A DNA stretch of 7,203 nt, taken from IMG/VR virus record IMGVR_UViG_3300018486_000146; one strand, written 5' to 3'. The notes below the pieces were generated by a model. That model saw only the letters and a list, made by a program, of their open reading frames with translations, had not been told where the DNA came from and did not search any database. This document shows positions 1,171-5,112 of this stretch, piece by piece. How positions within the stretch are numbered: position 1 is the first letter of the stretch; every line of letters begins with the position of its first letter. The translations under genes were made by a program, and so were the position numbers. This stretch comes from a virus. Taxonomy: Duplodnaviria > Heunggongvirae > Uroviricota > Caudoviricetes.

Positions 1171-1227
1171 CGGTTGTATTCCTTTTTTCATATCGGGGAG
1201 CACGCTGTTGCGAGTGCGCTTTCAGAC

Positions 1228-1255
1228 ATAAAAAAGCCCGTCACGTGAGGCGGGC
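1228..1255 (-). terminator. Intrinsic terminator on the minus strand, in a tL1-like position
   Basis: On the minus strand the sequence reads GCCCG-CC-TCACGTGA-CGGGC followed by TTTTTTAT: a GC-rich stem then a U6 tract. On the plus strand the A-run precedes the hairpin, so it is unidirectional. It sits between the Cys-rich ORF and the downstream early-left genes. Confidence 0.55.
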
Positions 1256-1286: not shown

Positions 1287-1481
1287 TCAGTTGGTATTGT
1301 GCGTACGTGGTACCACAAGGTTGAAGCGGACACGCCAGTGCGTTGCAATGGTATGCAGGAAAGCACCACATCCAGGGCAGTGCTCATAACATTCGTTGAT
1401 TTGGTATCGTTTTGGCTTTGGTGTCAGAAGCTGTGTTTGGCAAGCAGGGCATTCACCTTTGAGCGGTTTATACGTTTTCAC
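1287..1481 (-). CDS. Small Cys-rich protein, 64 aa, putative zinc ribbon (CPAC ... CYEHCPGC)
   Basis: GTG start at 1481 preceded by GAGGA with a 6-nt spacer. Five cysteines in a CxxC...CxxxCxxC arrangement. It is the first ORF downstream of the putative pL and is followed about 30 nt later by the terminator. Only 64 aa with a GTG start, so moderate confidence. Confidence 0.45.
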   Translation of the reverse strand: MKTYKPLKGECPACQTQLLTPKPKRYQINECYEHCPGCGAFLHTIATHWRVRFNLVVPRTHNTN

Positions 1482-1648
1482 GCCGTTTCCTCATTCAGTT
1501 CACTTTGGTGGTTCGGCGGCTTCGACTTGTATCAGTAGACAGTGCTTCGCCGCACCCCAAAGGGAACTTACTGACCCGTATTGCCGACATCCTGTCCCGC
1601 CACGGTCCCGACGCATGGATTAGAGTCGCGCCGTTCGACTTGTGGCTA

Positions 1649-1677
1649 AAGATACAATTTGAGTTGTATTGTGTAAA
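1649..1677 (-). promoter_or_regulatory. Candidate pL-like leftward promoter (-35 TTTACA, 17-bp spacer, -10 TATCTT) overlapping the left operator
   Basis: Read on the minus strand: TTTACA (plus 1677..1672), 17 nt, TATCTT (plus 1654..1649). The -10 is weak, and the transcription start is not determinable from sequence alone. Confidence 0.3.
1654..1667. promoter_or_regulatory. Candidate left operator: 14-bp 434-type site ACAATTTGAGTTGT
   Basis: Matches ACAA-N6-TTGT, the operator pattern of phage 434-family repressors. Its flank (TTGTATT followed by a -35-like hexamer on the minus strand) parallels the OR-A site at 2475-2488. Confidence 0.5.
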
Positions 1678-1764
1678 CCACAAATGTGGTATTTTGTGGG
1701 GTGTGAATACTACTTTATTGATATTTAAGTGAATTTAATTTGTAAGACTTTACAAATGGGGTAA

Positions 1765-1784
1765 GGGAGGCTGTTACGCCTCCC
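1765..1784 (-). terminator. GC-rich hairpin just 3' of cI; possible terminator or insulator for the cI transcript
   Basis: GGGAGGC-tgttac-GCCTCCC is a perfect 7-bp stem, 20 nt downstream of the cI stop. The following T tract is interrupted on both strands, so the strength is uncertain. Confidence 0.4.
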
Positions 1785-1803
1785 GATATTTACGGTGGGA
1801 ATA

Positions 1804-2427
1804 CTAACGTTTACGGCGGTAAATACGGTGTTCGATCATTACACCTATGATCTGTAAGTTCATATCTGCACTACGAAAAATAGGGTAATCAGGATTTAGG
1901 GGGATTAATTCAAAGTCGTCGATGCCGATTCCTAATGGACGGTATTTTTTAAATGTAGCTTCGTGGCCGTCGTTTTTGGCGACAACAAACTCCCCTGGTG
2001 CAGGACATAGATCAGGATCGATGATAACAATGTCTCCTTCTTTAAACTCTGGTTGCATGCTGTCGCCATCGATACGTAATGCGAAGCATGTTTCTGGAAT
2101 GTCAGAGTCTGCCAAAATATATTCAAATTCCCCTGTCAGATCTGTTATGTCTCTTGCTTCTGTAAGCTCTCCTGCCTGAACGTAACTTAATATAGGTATG
2201 CGTCTGGTACTTATCTCCGCGAGAGGCATAATATTTTTACCGTTCAGTAGCCAGTCTGGGCTACATTTCAAGGCCTTAGCCAGATCCAGAAGATTGCGTG
2301 GCTTTCTGGTTCGTCCACTTTCGATGGATTCTATGGATTGTTGGCTAACCCCTGCAGAATTCGCTACTTCCACTTGAGTCATTCCTAATTCCAAACGACG
2401 TGCTTTAAAACGGGCTGCGAGAGACAT
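1804..2427 (-). CDS. cI: cI-type prophage repressor: N-terminal XRE/434-like HTH plus C-terminal LexA-like S24 autopeptidase domain
   Basis: The HTH region (MTQVEVANSAGVSQQSIESIESGRTRKPRNLLDLAKALKCSPDWLLNGK) aligns with the phage 434 repressor DNA-binding domain as recalled. The C-terminal domain carries an Ala-Gly cleavage site (VQAGEL), a GDSM serine motif and a downstream lysine (FKKY), typical of RecA-stimulated autocleavage. Start set at ATG 2427 (AAGGA 8 nt upstream), not the ORF-track start at 2478, which falls inside the operator region. Confidence 0.93.
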   Translation of the reverse strand: MSLAARFKARRLELGMTQVEVANSAGVSQQSIESIESGRTRKPRNLLDLAKALKCSPDWLLNGKNIMPLAEISTRRIPILSYVQAGELTEARDITDLTGEFEYILADSDIPETCFALRIDGDSMQPEFKEGDIVIIDPDLCPAPGEFVVAKNDGHEATFKKYRPLGIGIDDFELIPLNPDYPIFRSADMNLQIIGVMIEHRIYRRKR

Positions 2428-2450
2428 GGGATTAGTCCTTCTGGGTTGTA

Positions 2451-2472
2451 TTAATGTGTATCCCCACATTAA
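2451..2472. promoter_or_regulatory. 22-bp inverted repeat TTAATGTG-N6-CACATTAA in the cI-proximal part of the switch; unassigned protein-binding site
   Basis: Perfect 8-bp arms with a 6-bp spacer, 25-45 bp upstream of the cI start codon. It differs from the ACAA-N6-TTGT operators. A related AATGTGG / CCACAAATGTGG motif occurs at 1678-1689 near the left operator. Confidence 0.4.
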
Positions 2473-2474
2473 AA

Positions 2475-2488
2475 ACAATTTTTGTTGT
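2475..2488. promoter_or_regulatory. Right operator site OR-A (ACAATTTTTGTTGT), 434-type
   Basis: Exact ACAA-N6-TTGT match, immediately upstream of the -35 TTGACA of the rightward promoter. Confidence 0.5.
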
Positions 2489-2490
2489 AT

Positions 2491-2520
2491 TTGACAAACC
2501 TCGTTTGTTGTTGCTAAATA
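2491..2520 (+). promoter_or_regulatory. pR-like rightward promoter for cro and the primase-helicase (-35 TTGACA, 17-bp spacer, -10 CTAAAT/TAAATA)
   Basis: Consensus -35 TTGACA at 2491-2496; -10-like hexamer at 2514-2520; about 25 nt upstream of the cro ATG. Operator sites overlap it. Confidence 0.5.
2494..2508. promoter_or_regulatory. Right operator site OR-B (ACAAAC-CTC-GTTTGT), a perfect inverted repeat overlapping the pR -35/spacer
   Basis: Perfect 6-bp arms around a 3-bp centre. ACAA/TTGT ends as in 434 operators, but 15 bp long rather than 14. Confidence 0.45.
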
Positions 2521-2533
2521 CCACTAAAATTGT
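2520..2533. promoter_or_regulatory. Right operator site OR-C (ACCACTAAAATTGT), a degenerate 434-type site over the pR start region
   Basis: ACCA-N6-TTGT, one mismatch to the pattern, between the -10 and the cro ribosome-binding site. Confidence 0.35.
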
Positions 2534-2547
2534 ATGAGGTGAAAGCA

Positions 2548-2760
2548 ATGACCTTAGCGACCCGAGTAAAAGAACGACGTAAAGAACTCAAAATGACGCA
2601 AGTTACGTTGGCTGAGCTCACAGGAGTGAGCCAGCAGGCAATAAACAGAATTGAAAGTGGTGTTATTGCTCGGCCACGTTATCTTCTTGAAATGTCTATA
2701 GCATTGGATTGCGACCCTAATTGGCTGTTGTATGGCTCACAAAACGATAAAAAGGCGTAG
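2548..2760 (+). CDS. cro: Cro-like HTH repressor, 70 aa, phage 434 Cro family
   Basis: ATG 2548 with GAGGTG 6 nt upstream (the ORF-track start at 2530 is TTG). The sequence MTLATRVKERRKELKMTQVTLAELTGVSQQAINRIESGVIARPRYLLEMSIALDCDPNWLLYGSQNDKKA aligns along its length with 434 Cro as recalled. Divergent from cI across the operator region. Confidence 0.9.
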   Translation: MTLATRVKERRKELKMTQVTLAELTGVSQQAINRIESGVIARPRYLLEMSIALDCDPNWLLYGSQNDKKA

Positions 2761-2766
2761 CTCCCC

Positions 2767-4959
2767 ATGTCCGATAGCAAACCATGGGGAGCTACGCCTG
2801 ATGAGTGGTTTCATTTCGACCTGGTATTGGGGAGAACTGATCATCTTCTCCCAGTTGTATGTAACCCCAGTGCGACCATATCCCCTGATAGTAAACTGAA
2901 AGCGTTGGGTAAGACGCCGAGTCGCTATAACCGGGACCGCCAGGTCACCGGTATTGCTCAATGGACCGGGCATGTTGTTACTGAGCATGATTTTGCCCGC
3001 TGGTCGAATGAACCGGATTATGGCATCTGCGTGCGTACAGGCCATGGCTGGCTGGCGCTGGACTGTGATAGCGAAGATGAAGACATTCATGCAGATATTC
3101 GCAAAACGCTTGTGCAACTTCTGGGTGAGTTGCCGCCGCGACGCTGGCGAGCAAACAGTAATAAGTGTCTGTATCTGCTGGCCGTTGATGGTGATTTCCG
3201 TAAGCGTATCCATCGCCTGGCGGGGGATATGGGCATTATCGAGTTGCTGGCGAACGGGCAGCAGTTCGTTGCCTGCGGTACGCACAGCAGCGGCGCGCGT
3301 ATTGAATGGGACGGCGGTTTGCCGGATGAACCTCCGGCTATTACTGGTGAGCAGCTTGAAACGCTGTGGCAGCGCCTGGCTGAACAACTCCCTGTGTCGG
3401 TAACCACCGAAGCGGGCAACACGAAGATGCGCGACCGATCAGCATTCACGCCCGGCGCGACGGATGATACAGCTGAATATCTTGATGCCAATGGCTGGAC
3501 GCTGCTGGATGGCGCAAATGGTGAACGATATATCCGCTGTCCGTTTGAAGACGGCCACAGTAGCGGGGGCGATCCAACAAGCACAGTTTATTTTCCTGCG
3601 GGAACCGCGGGCTTTGAGCAGGGGCATTTTAAATGCCTGCATGCCAGTTGTGCGCATCGTGATGACGGAGATTTCCTTAATGCCATCGGGATCCGCAACG
3701 ACGATTTCGAAGATCTGACCAGCACCGAAGTGGCGGAACCTTTACCGCTGCCTGCTTTCGAGCGTGATAAATGGGGGCGTATCGAGGCAACAATCAGCAA
3801 CGCAGCCAAAGCAGTAGTACGCCCTGATTTTGTGGACATCGATATTCGCTTTGACCAGTTCCGCGACGAAATCATGTTTGCCCCTGCAGGATCCGGACAA
3901 TGGCGGGCATTCACCGATGCGGATTATGCGCGCCTGCGCATCACGATGGAAAAGCGGGGATTTAAACCTGTTGGTCGTGAACTTATTCGCGATGTGGTGT
4001 TACTTGCAGCCGATGAACAACCATTCGATTCAGCGATCACCTGGCTGAACGGACTGGAGTGGGATGGCGTGCCGCGCATCGAATGTTTCTACCATACGCA
4101 CTTCGGTACAGCCGACACGCCTTATACCCGTGCGGTGTCTATGTACATGTGGACCGCGTTGGCGGGGCGAGTACTGGAGCCAGGCATCAAAGCGGATATG
4201 GTGCCGATCCTCGTTGGTCCGCAGGGCTGCGGTAAGTCTTCCGGAGTGGAGGCACTGAGCCCTGATCCTGCGTTTTTTACTGAAATCTCTTTTGCCGAAA
4301 AAGACGATGATCTCGCTCGAAAAATGCGTGGTCGGCTGGTGGCAGAGATTGGTGAACTGCGCGGACTTAATACCAAAGAGCTGGAGTCAATCAAAGCGTT
4401 TGTGACGCGTACTCACGAAAACTGGATCCCGAAATACCGGGAGTTCGCCACCCAGTTTCCTCGTCGCCTGGTGTTCGTTGGTACCACCAATGAGGACGAA
4501 TTCCTTGCGGACAAGACTGGTAACCGTCGCTGGCTCCCCGTGGAAGTGTCGAAAGTCGACGTGAAAGCGATAAAAAGAGATCTCCTTTTACTTTGGGCTG
4601 AGGCTCGTGAGGTGTTTCAGCGTCTGGGGGGTATCCAGTTCCGTGAGGCTGAACAACTGGCAGCGAGTGTCCATGAACAGTACACCATCAAGGATGCTTG
4701 GCTTGAAACGGTAGAGAAATGGCTCGACACGCCAGACCTGATGACTAATGAACTTCCGCGAAATTGCGAATTTTTACGCGCAAGTGATGTTTTGCGTGAT
4801 GCGATTGGGCTAAATCCTGACCGCATCGGAAAACGCGAAGAAATGCGAATTAGTAATGTTTTGCAAAATTGCGGGTATAAGCGTGCCCAAAGGCGAATTG
4901 GGGGGAAAATGACTCGAATTTTTGAGGCGGTGTCCCAACCTGTACCAACCTCAAAATAG
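2767..4959 (+). CDS. Replication initiator: primase-polymerase N-terminal domain, zinc-binding Cys/His cluster, and C-terminal P-loop SF3/D5/VirE-like helicase domain (730 aa)
   Basis: N-terminal DxD motif (LALDCDSEDED) and GTHSSG, consistent with prim-pol. Cys/His cluster CPFEDGH...HFKCLHASCAH. Walker A GPQGCGKSS and an SF3-like motif C (VFVGTTNE). Starts 6 bp after the cro stop. Iterons lie at and after its 3' end. Confidence 0.92.
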   Translation: MSDSKPWGATPDEWFHFDLVLGRTDHLLPVVCNPSATISPDSKLKALGKTPSRYNRDRQVTGIAQWTGHVVTEHDFARWSNEPDYGICVRTGHGWLALDCDSEDEDIHADIRKTLVQLLGELPPRRWRANSNKCLYLLAVDGDFRKRIHRLAGDMGIIELLANGQQFVACGTHSSGARIEWDGGLPDEPPAITGEQLETLWQRLAEQLPVSVTTEAGNTKMRDRSAFTPGATDDTAEYLDANGWTLLDGANGERYIRCPFEDGHSSGGDPTSTVYFPAGTAGFEQGHFKCLHASCAHRDDGDFLNAIGIRNDDFEDLTSTEVAEPLPLPAFERDKWGRIEATISNAAKAVVRPDFVDIDIRFDQFRDEIMFAPAGSGQWRAFTDADYARLRITMEKRGFKPVGRELIRDVVLLAADEQPFDSAITWLNGLEWDGVPRIECFYHTHFGTADTPYTRAVSMYMWTALAGRVLEPGIKADMVPILVGPQGCGKSSGVEALSPDPAFFTEISFAEKDDDLARKMRGRLVAEIGELRGLNTKELESIKAFVTRTHENWIPKYREFATQFPRRLVFVGTTNEDEFLADKTGNRRWLPVEVSKVDVKAIKRDLLLLWAEAREVFQRLGGIQFREAEQLAASVHEQYTIKDAWLETVEKWLDTPDLMTNELPRNCEFLRASDVLRDAIGLNPDRIGKREEMRISNVLQNCGYKRAQRRIGGKMTRIFEAVSQPVPTSK

Positions 4960-5112
4960 ATGTTGGTACATTTTAACTAATTGAATTTAAAGGCCGGTAC
5001 CAACTGTACCATCTGTACCAACCTAATTACTAAGAACCCCATATATATATATAAGTCGCTTGGGGAAAAGGTTTGAAAAGAGCTGGTACAGGTGGGTACA
5101 GGTTGGTACAGG
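4931..5112. repeat. Iteron array flanking an (AT)n tract: putative phage origin of replication
   Basis: Core TGTACCA(ACC) in direct orientation at 4931-4950 (two tandem 10-mers inside the primase 3' end), 4996-5004, 5005-5013 and 5014-5023. ATATATATATATA at 5041-5053. Inverted copies (C/T)(T/G)GGTACAGG at 5083-5092, 5093-5102 and 5103-5112 with exact 10-bp periodicity, plus one inverted copy at 4961-4970. Confidence 0.65.

Follow-up and report, generated by a model that had tools for sequence, protein, structure and literature searches.

A probable 434-type lysis/lysogeny switch with its own operator sequences in an Escherichia coli prophage

The repressor of phage 434 contacts DNA through Gln28 and Gln33, and its binding is strongly reduced by changes within the ACAA half-site. 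A/T-rich operator centres favour binding of this repressor via indirect readout (PMC3317979). The key paper on the 434 PR and PRM promoters, as cited in PMC4848623, is that of Xu and Koudelka (2000). We analysed a 7203-nt stretch of DNA (the window) carrying a cI–cro region that is very probably the lysis/lysogeny switch of an E. coli prophage, homologous to the 434 switch in both its proteins and its DNA layout. An initial annotation had called it a 434-family immunity region. This assignment holds on the observed homology, positions, spacing and conservation: the top matches among solved structures were 434 repressor and 434 Cro, and the control regions match those of 434 operator for operator and hexamer for hexamer. 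Both genes are intact in the window and in 44 complete E. coli genomes, and the prophage around the switch is apparently complete. Of 5426 complete E. coli genomes, 44 to 65 (about 1%) carry the immunity group. When the whole window was compared with phage records by megablast, its primase and Q-lysis parts were matched, the immunity region never.

Proteins and control regions of the switch

The cI gene (1804–2427, minus strand) was characterized from the list of open reading frames, a phmmer search against PDB, Pfam and alignment with 434 cI. It encodes a 207-residue repressor with an N-terminal 434-type helix–turn–helix (HTH) domain and a C-terminal S24 self-cleaving domain (Pfam HTH_3 and Peptidase_S24, the latter with E = 1.8e-21). 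Its best PDB match was residues 1–69 of 434 repressor, a five-helix HTH domain (E = 5.9e-16), with P22 c2 far behind at about 1e-7. Pairwise alignment with full-length 434 cI gave 38% identity and paired the motifs VQAG/VRAG, GDSM and TFKK. As in 434, an Ala–Gly site and a Ser/Lys autocleavage domain are predicted (Ala85–Gly86, Ser123 and Lys160, numbered from Met1). The recognition helix keeps Gln28, Gln29 and Ser30 of 434 and differs from it by Thr27→Ser and Gln33→Ser. A GC-rich hairpin downstream of cI (1765–1784, minus strand; fold −16.1 kcal/mol, z = −4.8) is its likely terminator.

The cro gene (2548–2760, plus strand) encodes a 70-residue protein of the 434-Cro type, as judged by PDB match, alignment and Pfam (HTH_3). 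Its top PDB match was 434 Cro (E = 1.9e-19), to which it is 55% identical over 69 residues; the 434-Cro type is all-alpha and paralogous to the repressor N-terminal domain. Three helix positions differ from 434 Cro (S→A, Q→N and L→R). The alignments bear out two observations of the initial annotation, that both proteins keep a Gln-Gln-Ser/Ala start of the helix (QQS in cI, QQA in Cro) and that residue 33 of cI is Ser where 434 has Gln. Genes of the group are annotated in E. coli genomes merely as 'LexA family protein' or 'HTH domain protein'.

The divergent cI and cro genes surround three 14-bp operators, with start-to-start spacings of 23 nt (OR3–OR2) and 22 nt (OR2–OR1), the same as in 434. 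OR3 (ACAATTTTTGTTGT, 2475–2488) is an exact match to ACAA-N6-TTGT at the position of 434 OR3, inside the putative PRM spacer; 33 of the 38 distinct related sequences carry it unchanged. OR2 (ACCTCGTTTGTTGT, 2498–2511) keeps the register of 434 OR2; it is situated within the PR spacer, directly against the PRM −35. Its left half-site is weak; among relatives the right half, GTTGT, never changes, in contrast to the variable left half and centre. OR1 (ACCACTAAAATTGT, 2520–2533), which shares the register of 434 OR1, spans the region where PR starts. It has one mismatch to the pattern, in agreement with its original description as a degenerate site, and is conserved in 30 of 38 distinct sequences, its left half differing at position 3 only (ACCA, ACTA or ACAA). 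The string GTATTTGACAAAC, running from the last two bases of OR3 through the OR3–OR2 spacer into the first two bases of OR2, is the same in 434, and the two OR regions match at 39 of 69 positions without gaps.

PR (2491–2520, plus strand) has a −35 TTGACA at 2491–2496 and a −10 CTAAAT/TAAATA at 2514–2520 preceded by TG at 2512–2513; its position is homologous to 434 TTGACA-N17-GAAAAT, and it is conserved in relatives. The putative PRM (2468–2497, minus strand) was read from the sequence and from the same layout in 434, TTGTCA-N17-GAAGAT. Its −35 (TTGTCA, 2497→2492) overlaps that of PR on the opposite strand, and its −10 (TTTTAA/TTTAAT, 2474→2468) lacks the key A at position 2, making PRM the weakest of the assignments. 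A consensus promoter scan of the window called pL alone and neither PR nor PRM, so that these two rest on homology with 434.

The left operator, annotated initially as the single site at 1654–1667, has two or three sites, OL2 and a likely OL3 having been overlooked. OL1 (ACAATTTGAGTTGT, 1654–1667) is an exact pattern match, conserved, at the position of 434 OL1 in the pL spacer. OL2 (ACCACAAATGTGGT, 1677–1690) is a perfect dyad directly against the pL −35, at the 23-nt distance from OL1 that 434 also has. Of 43 distinct related sequences, 29 contain it and another five have one central base changed (ACCACAAACGTGGT). The promoter pL (1649–1677, minus strand) consists of TTTACA (1677→1672), 17 nt and TATCTT (1654→1649), a layout seen in 434 as TTTACA-N17-TAATTT; in relatives the −10 keeps TAnnTT (TATCTT, TAGATT or TACATT). 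Between OL1 and OL2 both the window and 434 have TGTAAAC, containing the complement of the pL −35, and 32 of 49 OL1–OL2 positions match. Candidate third sites one operator step (22–23 nt) to either side of OL1–OL2, at ~1631–1644 and ~1700–1713, were rejected by eye. The probable OL3 (ACTACTTTATTGAT) was placed at 1709–1722 because the 434 spacing fits (32 nt from OL2 here, 31 nt in 434) and the site is conserved, forming an island AC[CT]A-N6-TGAT past the hypervariable OL2–OL3 spacer. It resembles the inverted OR1 region (81%). OL3 is a weak site: its right half, TGAT, is non-canonical, and in the most distant relatives the site has disappeared or moved.

Operator assignment and immunity specificity

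The initial annotation read the operators as strict or degenerate ACAA-N6/7-TTGT sites at 2475–2488, 2494–2508 and 2520–2533, with one OL site and with pL and PRM arising from a duplicated cassette, taken here as a recent duplication. Taken as a whole, this reading is improbable. Its two exact sites, 2475–2488 and 1654–1667, do exist and are the only ACAA-N6-TTGT sequences in 7203 nt. The string at 2494–2508, by contrast, is a 15-nt ACAA-N7-TTGT sequence that breaks the 23/22-nt register, being displaced by 4 nt from OR2 proper; the ACAA in it closes the PR −35 sequence TTGACAA, which stands at the same place in 434 and is not an operator of that phage. OL2 and OL3, for which the reading has no place, are conserved.

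The similarity invoked for a duplication exists, though it is weak. The minus-strand parallel on which the proposal was based is present (TTGTCA-a-ATACAAC-aa-AAATTGT on the OR side, TTTACA-ca-ATACAAC-tc-AAATTGT on the OL side), and there is a 37-nt direct repeat of 70% identity between 1654–1690 and 2475–2511. This repeat, however, itself pairs OL2 with 2498–2511. Moreover, OL1–OL2 and OR3–OR2 are identical at 33 of 49 positions here, 34 of 49 in 434 and 36 of 49 in phage CobraSix, barely above the shuffle maxima of 32–34, and OL matches the inverted OR1–OR2 of the window equally well (32 of 48). The pL/PRM resemblance is found to the same extent in 434 and in sister phages, and so is a family-wide layout. 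It is the product of shared half-sites, the −35 hexamer and the fixed 23-nt spacing, and any duplication would predate the family.

The two exact sites, which flank cI, compare with 0.12 expected in the window, a count of two being reached in 1 of 200 shuffles. Sites with one mismatch were not enriched window-wide (seven against 3.8 expected; 20 of 200 shuffles reached seven), and the degenerate sites therefore rest on homology and conservation rather than on counts. The broader pattern ACMA-N6-TKGT, which OL2 fits, was picked post hoc with the data already seen; it occurs four times against 0.56 expected, a count reached in none of 200 shuffles, and all four occurrences lie in the two control regions. 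Conservation was assessed across 58 loci sharing this recognition helix, which gave 38 and 43 distinct sequences. Column conservation averaged 0.99 for OR3, 0.97 for OR1 and 0.95 for OL2, as compared with 0.73 for the cI 5′UTR and 0.72 for the OL2–OL3 spacer. Because the entire OR core is conserved, promoter hexamers included, operator and promoter positions are inseparable by conservation alone. Sister clades have the same scaffold with ACAG-N6-CTGT operators and different helices, so that operator sequence changes along with the recognition helix. This covariation is the behaviour that would be expected of operators.

Four of the six operators depart from ACAA/TTGT. Among the 12 half-sites ACAA occurs six times, ACCA three times, and ACCT, ACTA and ATCA once each. 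Both halves read ACAA in OR3 and OL1 and ACCA in OL2, with OR1 mixed; the ACCA halves show conservation, not drift. The site that best fits the 434 consensus is OR3, not OR1, and should ACCA be a poor half-site, the sites would fill in an order other than that of the lambda/434 paradigm. A tentative reading, which we consider rather unlikely, is that two half-site classes, ACAA(T/C) and ACCAC, determine how strongly cI and Cro bind relative to each other. Were Cro to prefer ACAA and cI, with Ser27 and Ser33, to tolerate or prefer ACCA, the choice between OR1 and OR3 would fall to operator position 3, whereas 434 makes this choice at position 4 and the central bases. If true, the switch would solve the regulatory problem of 434 in another way while keeping its scaffold.

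Because its half-sites are AC(A/C/T)A rather than strictly ACAA, the phage probably differs from 434 in immunity. The initial annotation had proposed this from the helix residue; the suggestion is plausible, given T27S and Q33S in cI, the three Cro changes and the four deviating operators. Membership of imm434 would imply nearly all half-sites ACAA/TTGT, as compared with six of 12 here, and the contact residues Thr27, Gln28, Gln29, Ser30 and Gln33, of which the first and last are Ser. It is accordingly very unlikely that the two phages share one immunity, each repressed by the repressor of the other, even though OR3 and OL1 agree fully with the 434 consensus, cI retains Gln28, Gln29 and Ser30, and the operator centres are of the A/T-rich kind favoured by 434 repressor. 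The left halves of the PR-controlling sites are ACCA (OR1) and ACCT (OR2), and both halves of OL2 are ACCA, the kind of change within ACAA that lowers 434 repressor binding; the C-terminal domains of the two cI proteins are also highly diverged.

That the sites are chance strings in an AT-rich intergenic region, with the switch controlled elsewhere or defunct, is hardly credible: despite the unenriched one-mismatch sites and the loss of cro in some relatives (Sodalis, Acerihabitans), each of the six 434 operators has a counterpart in position, the sites stay conserved where their flanks vary, operators and recognition helices change together across sister clades, and both genes are intact in a prophage that appears complete.

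The put-like leader and a model for the switch

The window has no N gene and no cII gene. The pL leader, adjoining the immunity module and outside it, contains a putL-like antiterminator RNA segment (1569–1640, minus strand), found by blastn against annotated phages, with 81% identity over ~72 nt to the annotated putL of HK022, HK75 and O276. It lies within a few nucleotides of the predicted pL start; HK022-type put elements are two-stem RNAs of ~70 nt encoded just past an early promoter and homologous to putL/putR. In a three-sequence alignment the stem bases of the segment show paired changes (GUCG/CGAC here, GACG/CGUC in HK022). Single-sequence folding gave z = +0.97 for the segment, −0.84 for the putL of HK022 itself and −0.72 for a longer leader. 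A second copy (putR) was searched for within the window and not found, and Rfam at gathering thresholds gave no match in the window; the put family is apparently absent from Rfam, since the element was found by blastn against annotated phages only. In HK022-type elements, read-through of terminators depends on the RNA and on the zinc-binding domain of RNA polymerase β′; for this leader, put-type antitermination is a putative function.

Homology with 434 and lambda suggests the following model, in which DNA binding, its cooperativity, the activation step and the order in which the sites fill are inferred; heteroimmunity with 434 is likewise an inference. Dimers of cI would bind the 14-bp operators AC(A/C/T)A-N6-T(G/T)GT. 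On OR1 and the intrinsically weak OR2, probably cooperatively, they would block PR (−35 at 2491–2496, start predicted at ~2527), and at OR2, centred ~43 nt upstream of the PRM start predicted at ~2461, cI is placed to stimulate PRM. Since the −35 hexamers of PRM and PR overlap on opposite strands, the two promoters should exclude each other, as is reportedly the case in 434. Occupation of OR3, in the PRM spacer, by cI or Cro would shut off cI synthesis. Repression of pL would be exerted via OL1 in its spacer and OL2 abutting its −35, with a contribution from the weak OL3. Upon SOS induction cI would be cleaved at Ala85–Gly86 by the Ser123/Lys160 dyad. Derepressed pL transcripts, starting at ~1642, would at once make the put-type RNA and render RNA polymerase terminator-resistant, the RNA standing in for N protein.

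Relation to known switches

The switch shares with phage 434 the 14-bp operators, their spacing at OR and between OL1 and OL2, and a pL with OL1 in its spacer. It differs in its AC(A/C/T)A half-sites, near-invariant ACAA in 434, in having no rex-like gene, N or cII nearby, and in its flanking genome, which is non-lambdoid (PrimPol/VapE, DNA polymerase A and a myovirus-type tail). Among sequenced phages, the nearest repressors (58–60% amino acid identity) come from Enterobacter phage CobraSix, Klebsiella phage ST16-OXA48phi5.2 and Yersinia phage vB_YenM_29.18. These phages have the same OL layout and the same OR scaffold with TTGACAAAC, but their helix is QQSW(Q/G)(S/A), their operators are ACAG-N6-CTGT and cII follows cro. 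A paper on mEpimmI phages (PMC11893012) mentions neither 434, put nor VapE, and we found no link from it to this element.

As in HK022, the put element lies directly downstream of pL; here it is joined to a 434-type rather than an HK022-type immunity region, and its ATCCAT replaces the −10-like AACCAT of HK022-type putL. At the pL start a 434-type switch meets an HK022-type put RNA, within a replication and morphogenesis chassis that is non-lambdoid. The map presented here gives an uncharacterized immunity group precise operator and promoter positions that are open to testing. Together with the sister clades (ACAG-N6-CTGT and others), the group provides a naturally occurring set of 434-type repressor/operator pairs built on a single fixed scaffold, useful for studying the evolution of HTH specificity and heteroimmunity. 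Neither the switch, the set of pairs nor the put junction challenges current understanding; we conclude that the switch is an ordinary additional member of the well-understood 434 family with its own operator sequences.

Repressor, Cro and the register of their operators

The switch in the window truly belongs to the 434 family; it is well conserved and has an operator variant of its own. Among all PDB sequences, the best match of cI (1804-2427, minus strand, 207 aa; start codon with a Shine-Dalgarno AAGGA, 2440 to 2436) was 434 repressor residues 1-69 (E 5.9e-16) and that of Cro (2548-2760, plus strand, 70 aa) was 434 Cro (E 1.9e-19), with P22 c2 far weaker at ~1e-7. The 434 likeness proposed in the initial annotation is thus upheld for both proteins. 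Against the phage 434 genome's own proteins, identity was 38% for full-length cI and 55% for Cro. cI comprises HTH_3 and Peptidase_S24 domains, and in the alignment its VQA-GE, GDSM and TFKK motifs correspond to the cleavage site and the Ser/Lys dyad of 434 cI. Alignment with the 434 proteins also confirmed the retained Gln-Gln-Ser/Ala start of the recognition helix and the Ser for Gln at cI residue 33. Numbered as in the crystal structure, cI retains Gln28-Gln29-Ser30, with Ser in place of the 434 Thr at residue 27 and of the 434 Gln at residue 33; the Cro helix reads Ser-Gln-Gln-Ala-Ile-Asn-Arg versus Lys-Gln-Gln-Ser-Ile-Gln-Leu in 434 Cro.

The window has just two exact matches to ACAA-N6-TTGT, the reported sites at 1654-1667 and 2475-2488, against 0.12 expected (two or more in 1 of 200 shuffles). 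One-mismatch sites number seven versus 3.8 expected, which is not significant, so the sites initially described as degenerate need other evidence. The cI-cro intergenic DNA and the DNA past the cI stop were extracted from a 434 genome and related phages. The known 434 operators OR3 (ACAAGAAAAACTGT), OR2 (ACAAGATACATTGT) and OR1 (ACAAGAAAGTTTGT) were located in the 434 genome, where the start-to-start distances are 23 and 22 nt; the right operators of the window are spaced likewise. In the 434 frame, OR3 is the exact site at 2475-2488, OR2 is ACCTCGTTTGTTGT at 2498-2511 and OR1 is ACCACTAAAATTGT at 2520-2533. GTATTTGACAAAC, which spans the OR3-OR2 junction, is identical in 434 and the window, and 39 of 69 OR positions are identical without gaps. 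A 15-nt string at 2494-2508, previously taken as an operator, departs from this register by 4 nt; its ACAA is formed by the last four bases of TTGACAA, the PR -35 sequence, which is present in 434 too.

The left operator reads GGCTAAAGAT-ACAATTTGAGTTGT-ATTGTGTAA-ACCACAAATGTGGT in the window and GGCTTAAAATT-ACAAGGAAGATTGT-ATGTTGTAA-ACAATAAATATTGT in 434 (32 of 49 positions identical). This match identifies the exact site at 1654-1667 as OL1 and ACCACAAATGTGGT at 1677-1690 as OL2, and the repeat finder independently pairs 1654-1690 with 2475-2511 (direct repeat D1). A third left site, the probable OL3 (ACTACTTTATTGAT, 1709-1722), resembles the inverted OR1 region (inverted repeat I4). The 434 OL1, OL2 and OL3 starts are 23 and 31 nt apart, the second step being 32 nt in the window. 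The left operator first described, 1654-1667 alone, was incomplete. In the 434 record OL657227 (L006), 'protein_bind' features for OL1-OL3 are placed at 1641-1722, inside the cI coding sequence, while the canonical OL sequences lie between a rex-like gene and N, at ~2585-2652; the public record seems to be misannotated here.

Promoters, conservation and specificity of the switch

The sole promoter called by the promoter scan was pL (TTTACA 1677 to 1672, 17 nt, TATCTT 1654 to 1649, minus strand), which mirrors 434 pL (TTTACA-N17-TAATTT); OL1 fills its spacer and OL2 abuts its -35. PR was assigned by homology to 434 PR (TTGACA-N17-GAAAAT), with TTGACA at 2491-2496, OR2 in the spacer and CTAAAT/TAAATA at 2514-2520 with TG before it (plus strand); OR1 covers its start region. 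The least certain of the three is a putative PRM on the minus strand (TTGTCA 2497 to 2492, 17-18 nt including OR3, TTTTAA/TTTAAT). The -35 hexamers of PR and PRM fall on the same base pairs. The OR2 centre would lie ~43 nt upstream of the PRM start, a position from which the lambda and 434 repressors activate PRM.

Scans with cI yielded 34 loci from species-representative genomes and 80 from IMG/VR; 59 shared the recognition helix SQQ(S/A)(I/V)E(S/T)IE, and operator blocks from 58 gave 38 distinct OR and 43 distinct OL sequences. Mean column conservation was 0.99 for OR3, 0.97 for the -35 segment, 0.86 for OR2, 0.93 for the -10 segment and 0.97 for OR1, with 0.73 for the cI 5'UTR; on the left it was 0.90, 0.95 and 0.82 for OL1, OL2 and OL3, with 0.72 for the OL2-OL3 spacer and 0.66 for DNA left of pL. 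The left half and centre of OR2 vary (ACCTCG, ACATCA, ACACCA, ACATGA and others) and its right half GTTGT is fixed, as would be expected of a site that is intrinsically weak and filled cooperatively. The OR1 left half varies at position 3 alone (ACCA, ACTA, ACAA), OL2 is ACCACAAATGTGGT in 29 of the 43 distinct sequences, and the pL -10 varies (TATCTT, TAGATT, TACATT) with TAnnTT kept. The pattern ACMA-N6-TKGT, picked post hoc from these footprint data, has four matches in the window versus 0.56 expected (0 of 200 shuffles reach four), all within the two control regions. Three relatives in Sodalis (L012), Acerihabitans (L019) and an IMG/VR contig (L089) keep cI and the OR and OL operators with no cro after OR1, a Q-like gene starting there in L012; they look like decayed prophages retaining the repressor module.

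The closest cI proteins in the phage collection (58-60% identity) are those of CobraSix, ST16-OXA48phi5.2 and vB_YenM_29.18, with which many Pantoea, Erwinia and Enterobacter prophages group. This clade has the same scaffold as the window, including TTGACAAAC, with a QQSW.. helix and ACAG-N6-CTGT at every corresponding operator position; a third clade has QQSIEAIENG and ACAG/ACCAG..CCTGT operators. Helix and operator thus change together within a fixed frame, as expected of operators.

The twelve half-sites of the window are ACAA (six), ACCA (three), ACCT, ACTA and ATCA. In 434 co-crystals, Gln28 reads A1, Gln29 reads the G of pair 2 and packs with Thr27 on the thymine methyl of pair 3, and Gln33 reaches pairs 4 and 5. 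In these repressors, inner positions are specified by thymine-methyl pockets, and A/T-rich centres raise 434 repressor affinity through indirect readout (PMC3317979). Ser27 and Ser33 of cI would agree with looser or changed recognition of positions 3 to 5, and hence with a distinct immunity. Oddly, the two sites that fit the 434 type perfectly are OR3 and OL1, and OR1 is not among them.

Prophage setting and flanking elements

The window belongs to an E. coli prophage. BH100N and many other E. coli strains carry the 1301 nt at 1480-2780 in their chromosomes at 99.4% identity, with matches in 65 of 5426 complete genomes, covering at least 80% of the stretch in 44. In BH100N the element adjoins yfhL and runs from integrase through SNF2, methyltransferases, a family-A DNA polymerase and DUF2800/DUF2815 to cI and cro (annotated as 'LexA family protein' and 'HTH domain protein'), then VapE-domain primase, Q, holin, lysozyme, terminase and a contractile-tail-type module. 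The immunity region had no DNA-level match in any phage-collection record; the primase and Q-lysis block alone matched. Positions 1-22 (CAGACGTGTGCTCTTCCGATCT), which we take to be the reverse complement of an Illumina TruSeq adapter, look like adapter left on the end of the contig rather than a biological feature.

In more than 20 E. coli genomes the shared part is limited to 1480-1645, the put module, beyond which they diverge into a different immunity region, while IMG/VR relatives have the same immunity region and a different left flank. This one-sided sharing places a mosaic joint at ~1643-1646, at the pL start. Directly after the predicted start lies a putL-type antiterminator RNA (1569-1640, minus strand), 81% identical to the annotated putL of HK022, HK75 and O276, with paired base changes in its stems. 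It reads CTCTAATCC where relatives have CTCTAAACC or CTCTAAGCC, altering the -10-like AACCAT motif discussed for putL. Neither a second put copy nor an N gene was found in the window. The first ORF of the pL operon (1287-1481, minus strand) encodes a 64-aa zinc-ribbon-like protein, unannotated in RefSeq genomes; the hairpin and U6 run after it (1226-1251, minus strand, GCCCG...CGGGCUUUUUU, -9.8 kcal/mol) may plausibly serve as a terminator, one that polymerase modified by put would pass.

On the right, the primase/VapE-domain gene (2767-4959, 730 aa) begins 7 nt after cro (2760-2767), with no cII between them, unlike CobraSix, ST16-OXA48phi5.2 and vB_YenM_29.18, which have cII after cro. Two inverted clusters of ~10-nt iterons (CTGTACCAACCT / AGGTTGGTACAG) at 4930-5112 overlap the 3' end of the primase gene (stop 4957-4959), extend downstream and flank an AT-rich core, TATATATATATA (5041-5052). 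This region is likely to be a replication origin.

Likeness of the left and right control regions

The initial annotation was right in outline, requiring correction at OR2 and OL; it over-interpreted the resemblance of the pL and PRM regions as a duplicated cassette. The likeness itself is real, with 33 of 49 identities between pL/OL1-OL2 and PRM/OR3-OR2 in a gapped alignment, where composition-matched shuffles averaged 26-27 and peaked at 32-34. The window OL fits the inverted OR1-OR2 equally well (32/48). A duplication specific to this phage is not evidenced, since the same comparison is no weaker in 434 (34/49) or CobraSix (36/49); LH50c gave 32/50. The likeness is a family-wide design, in which two operators 23 nt apart hold a -35 hexamer between them.
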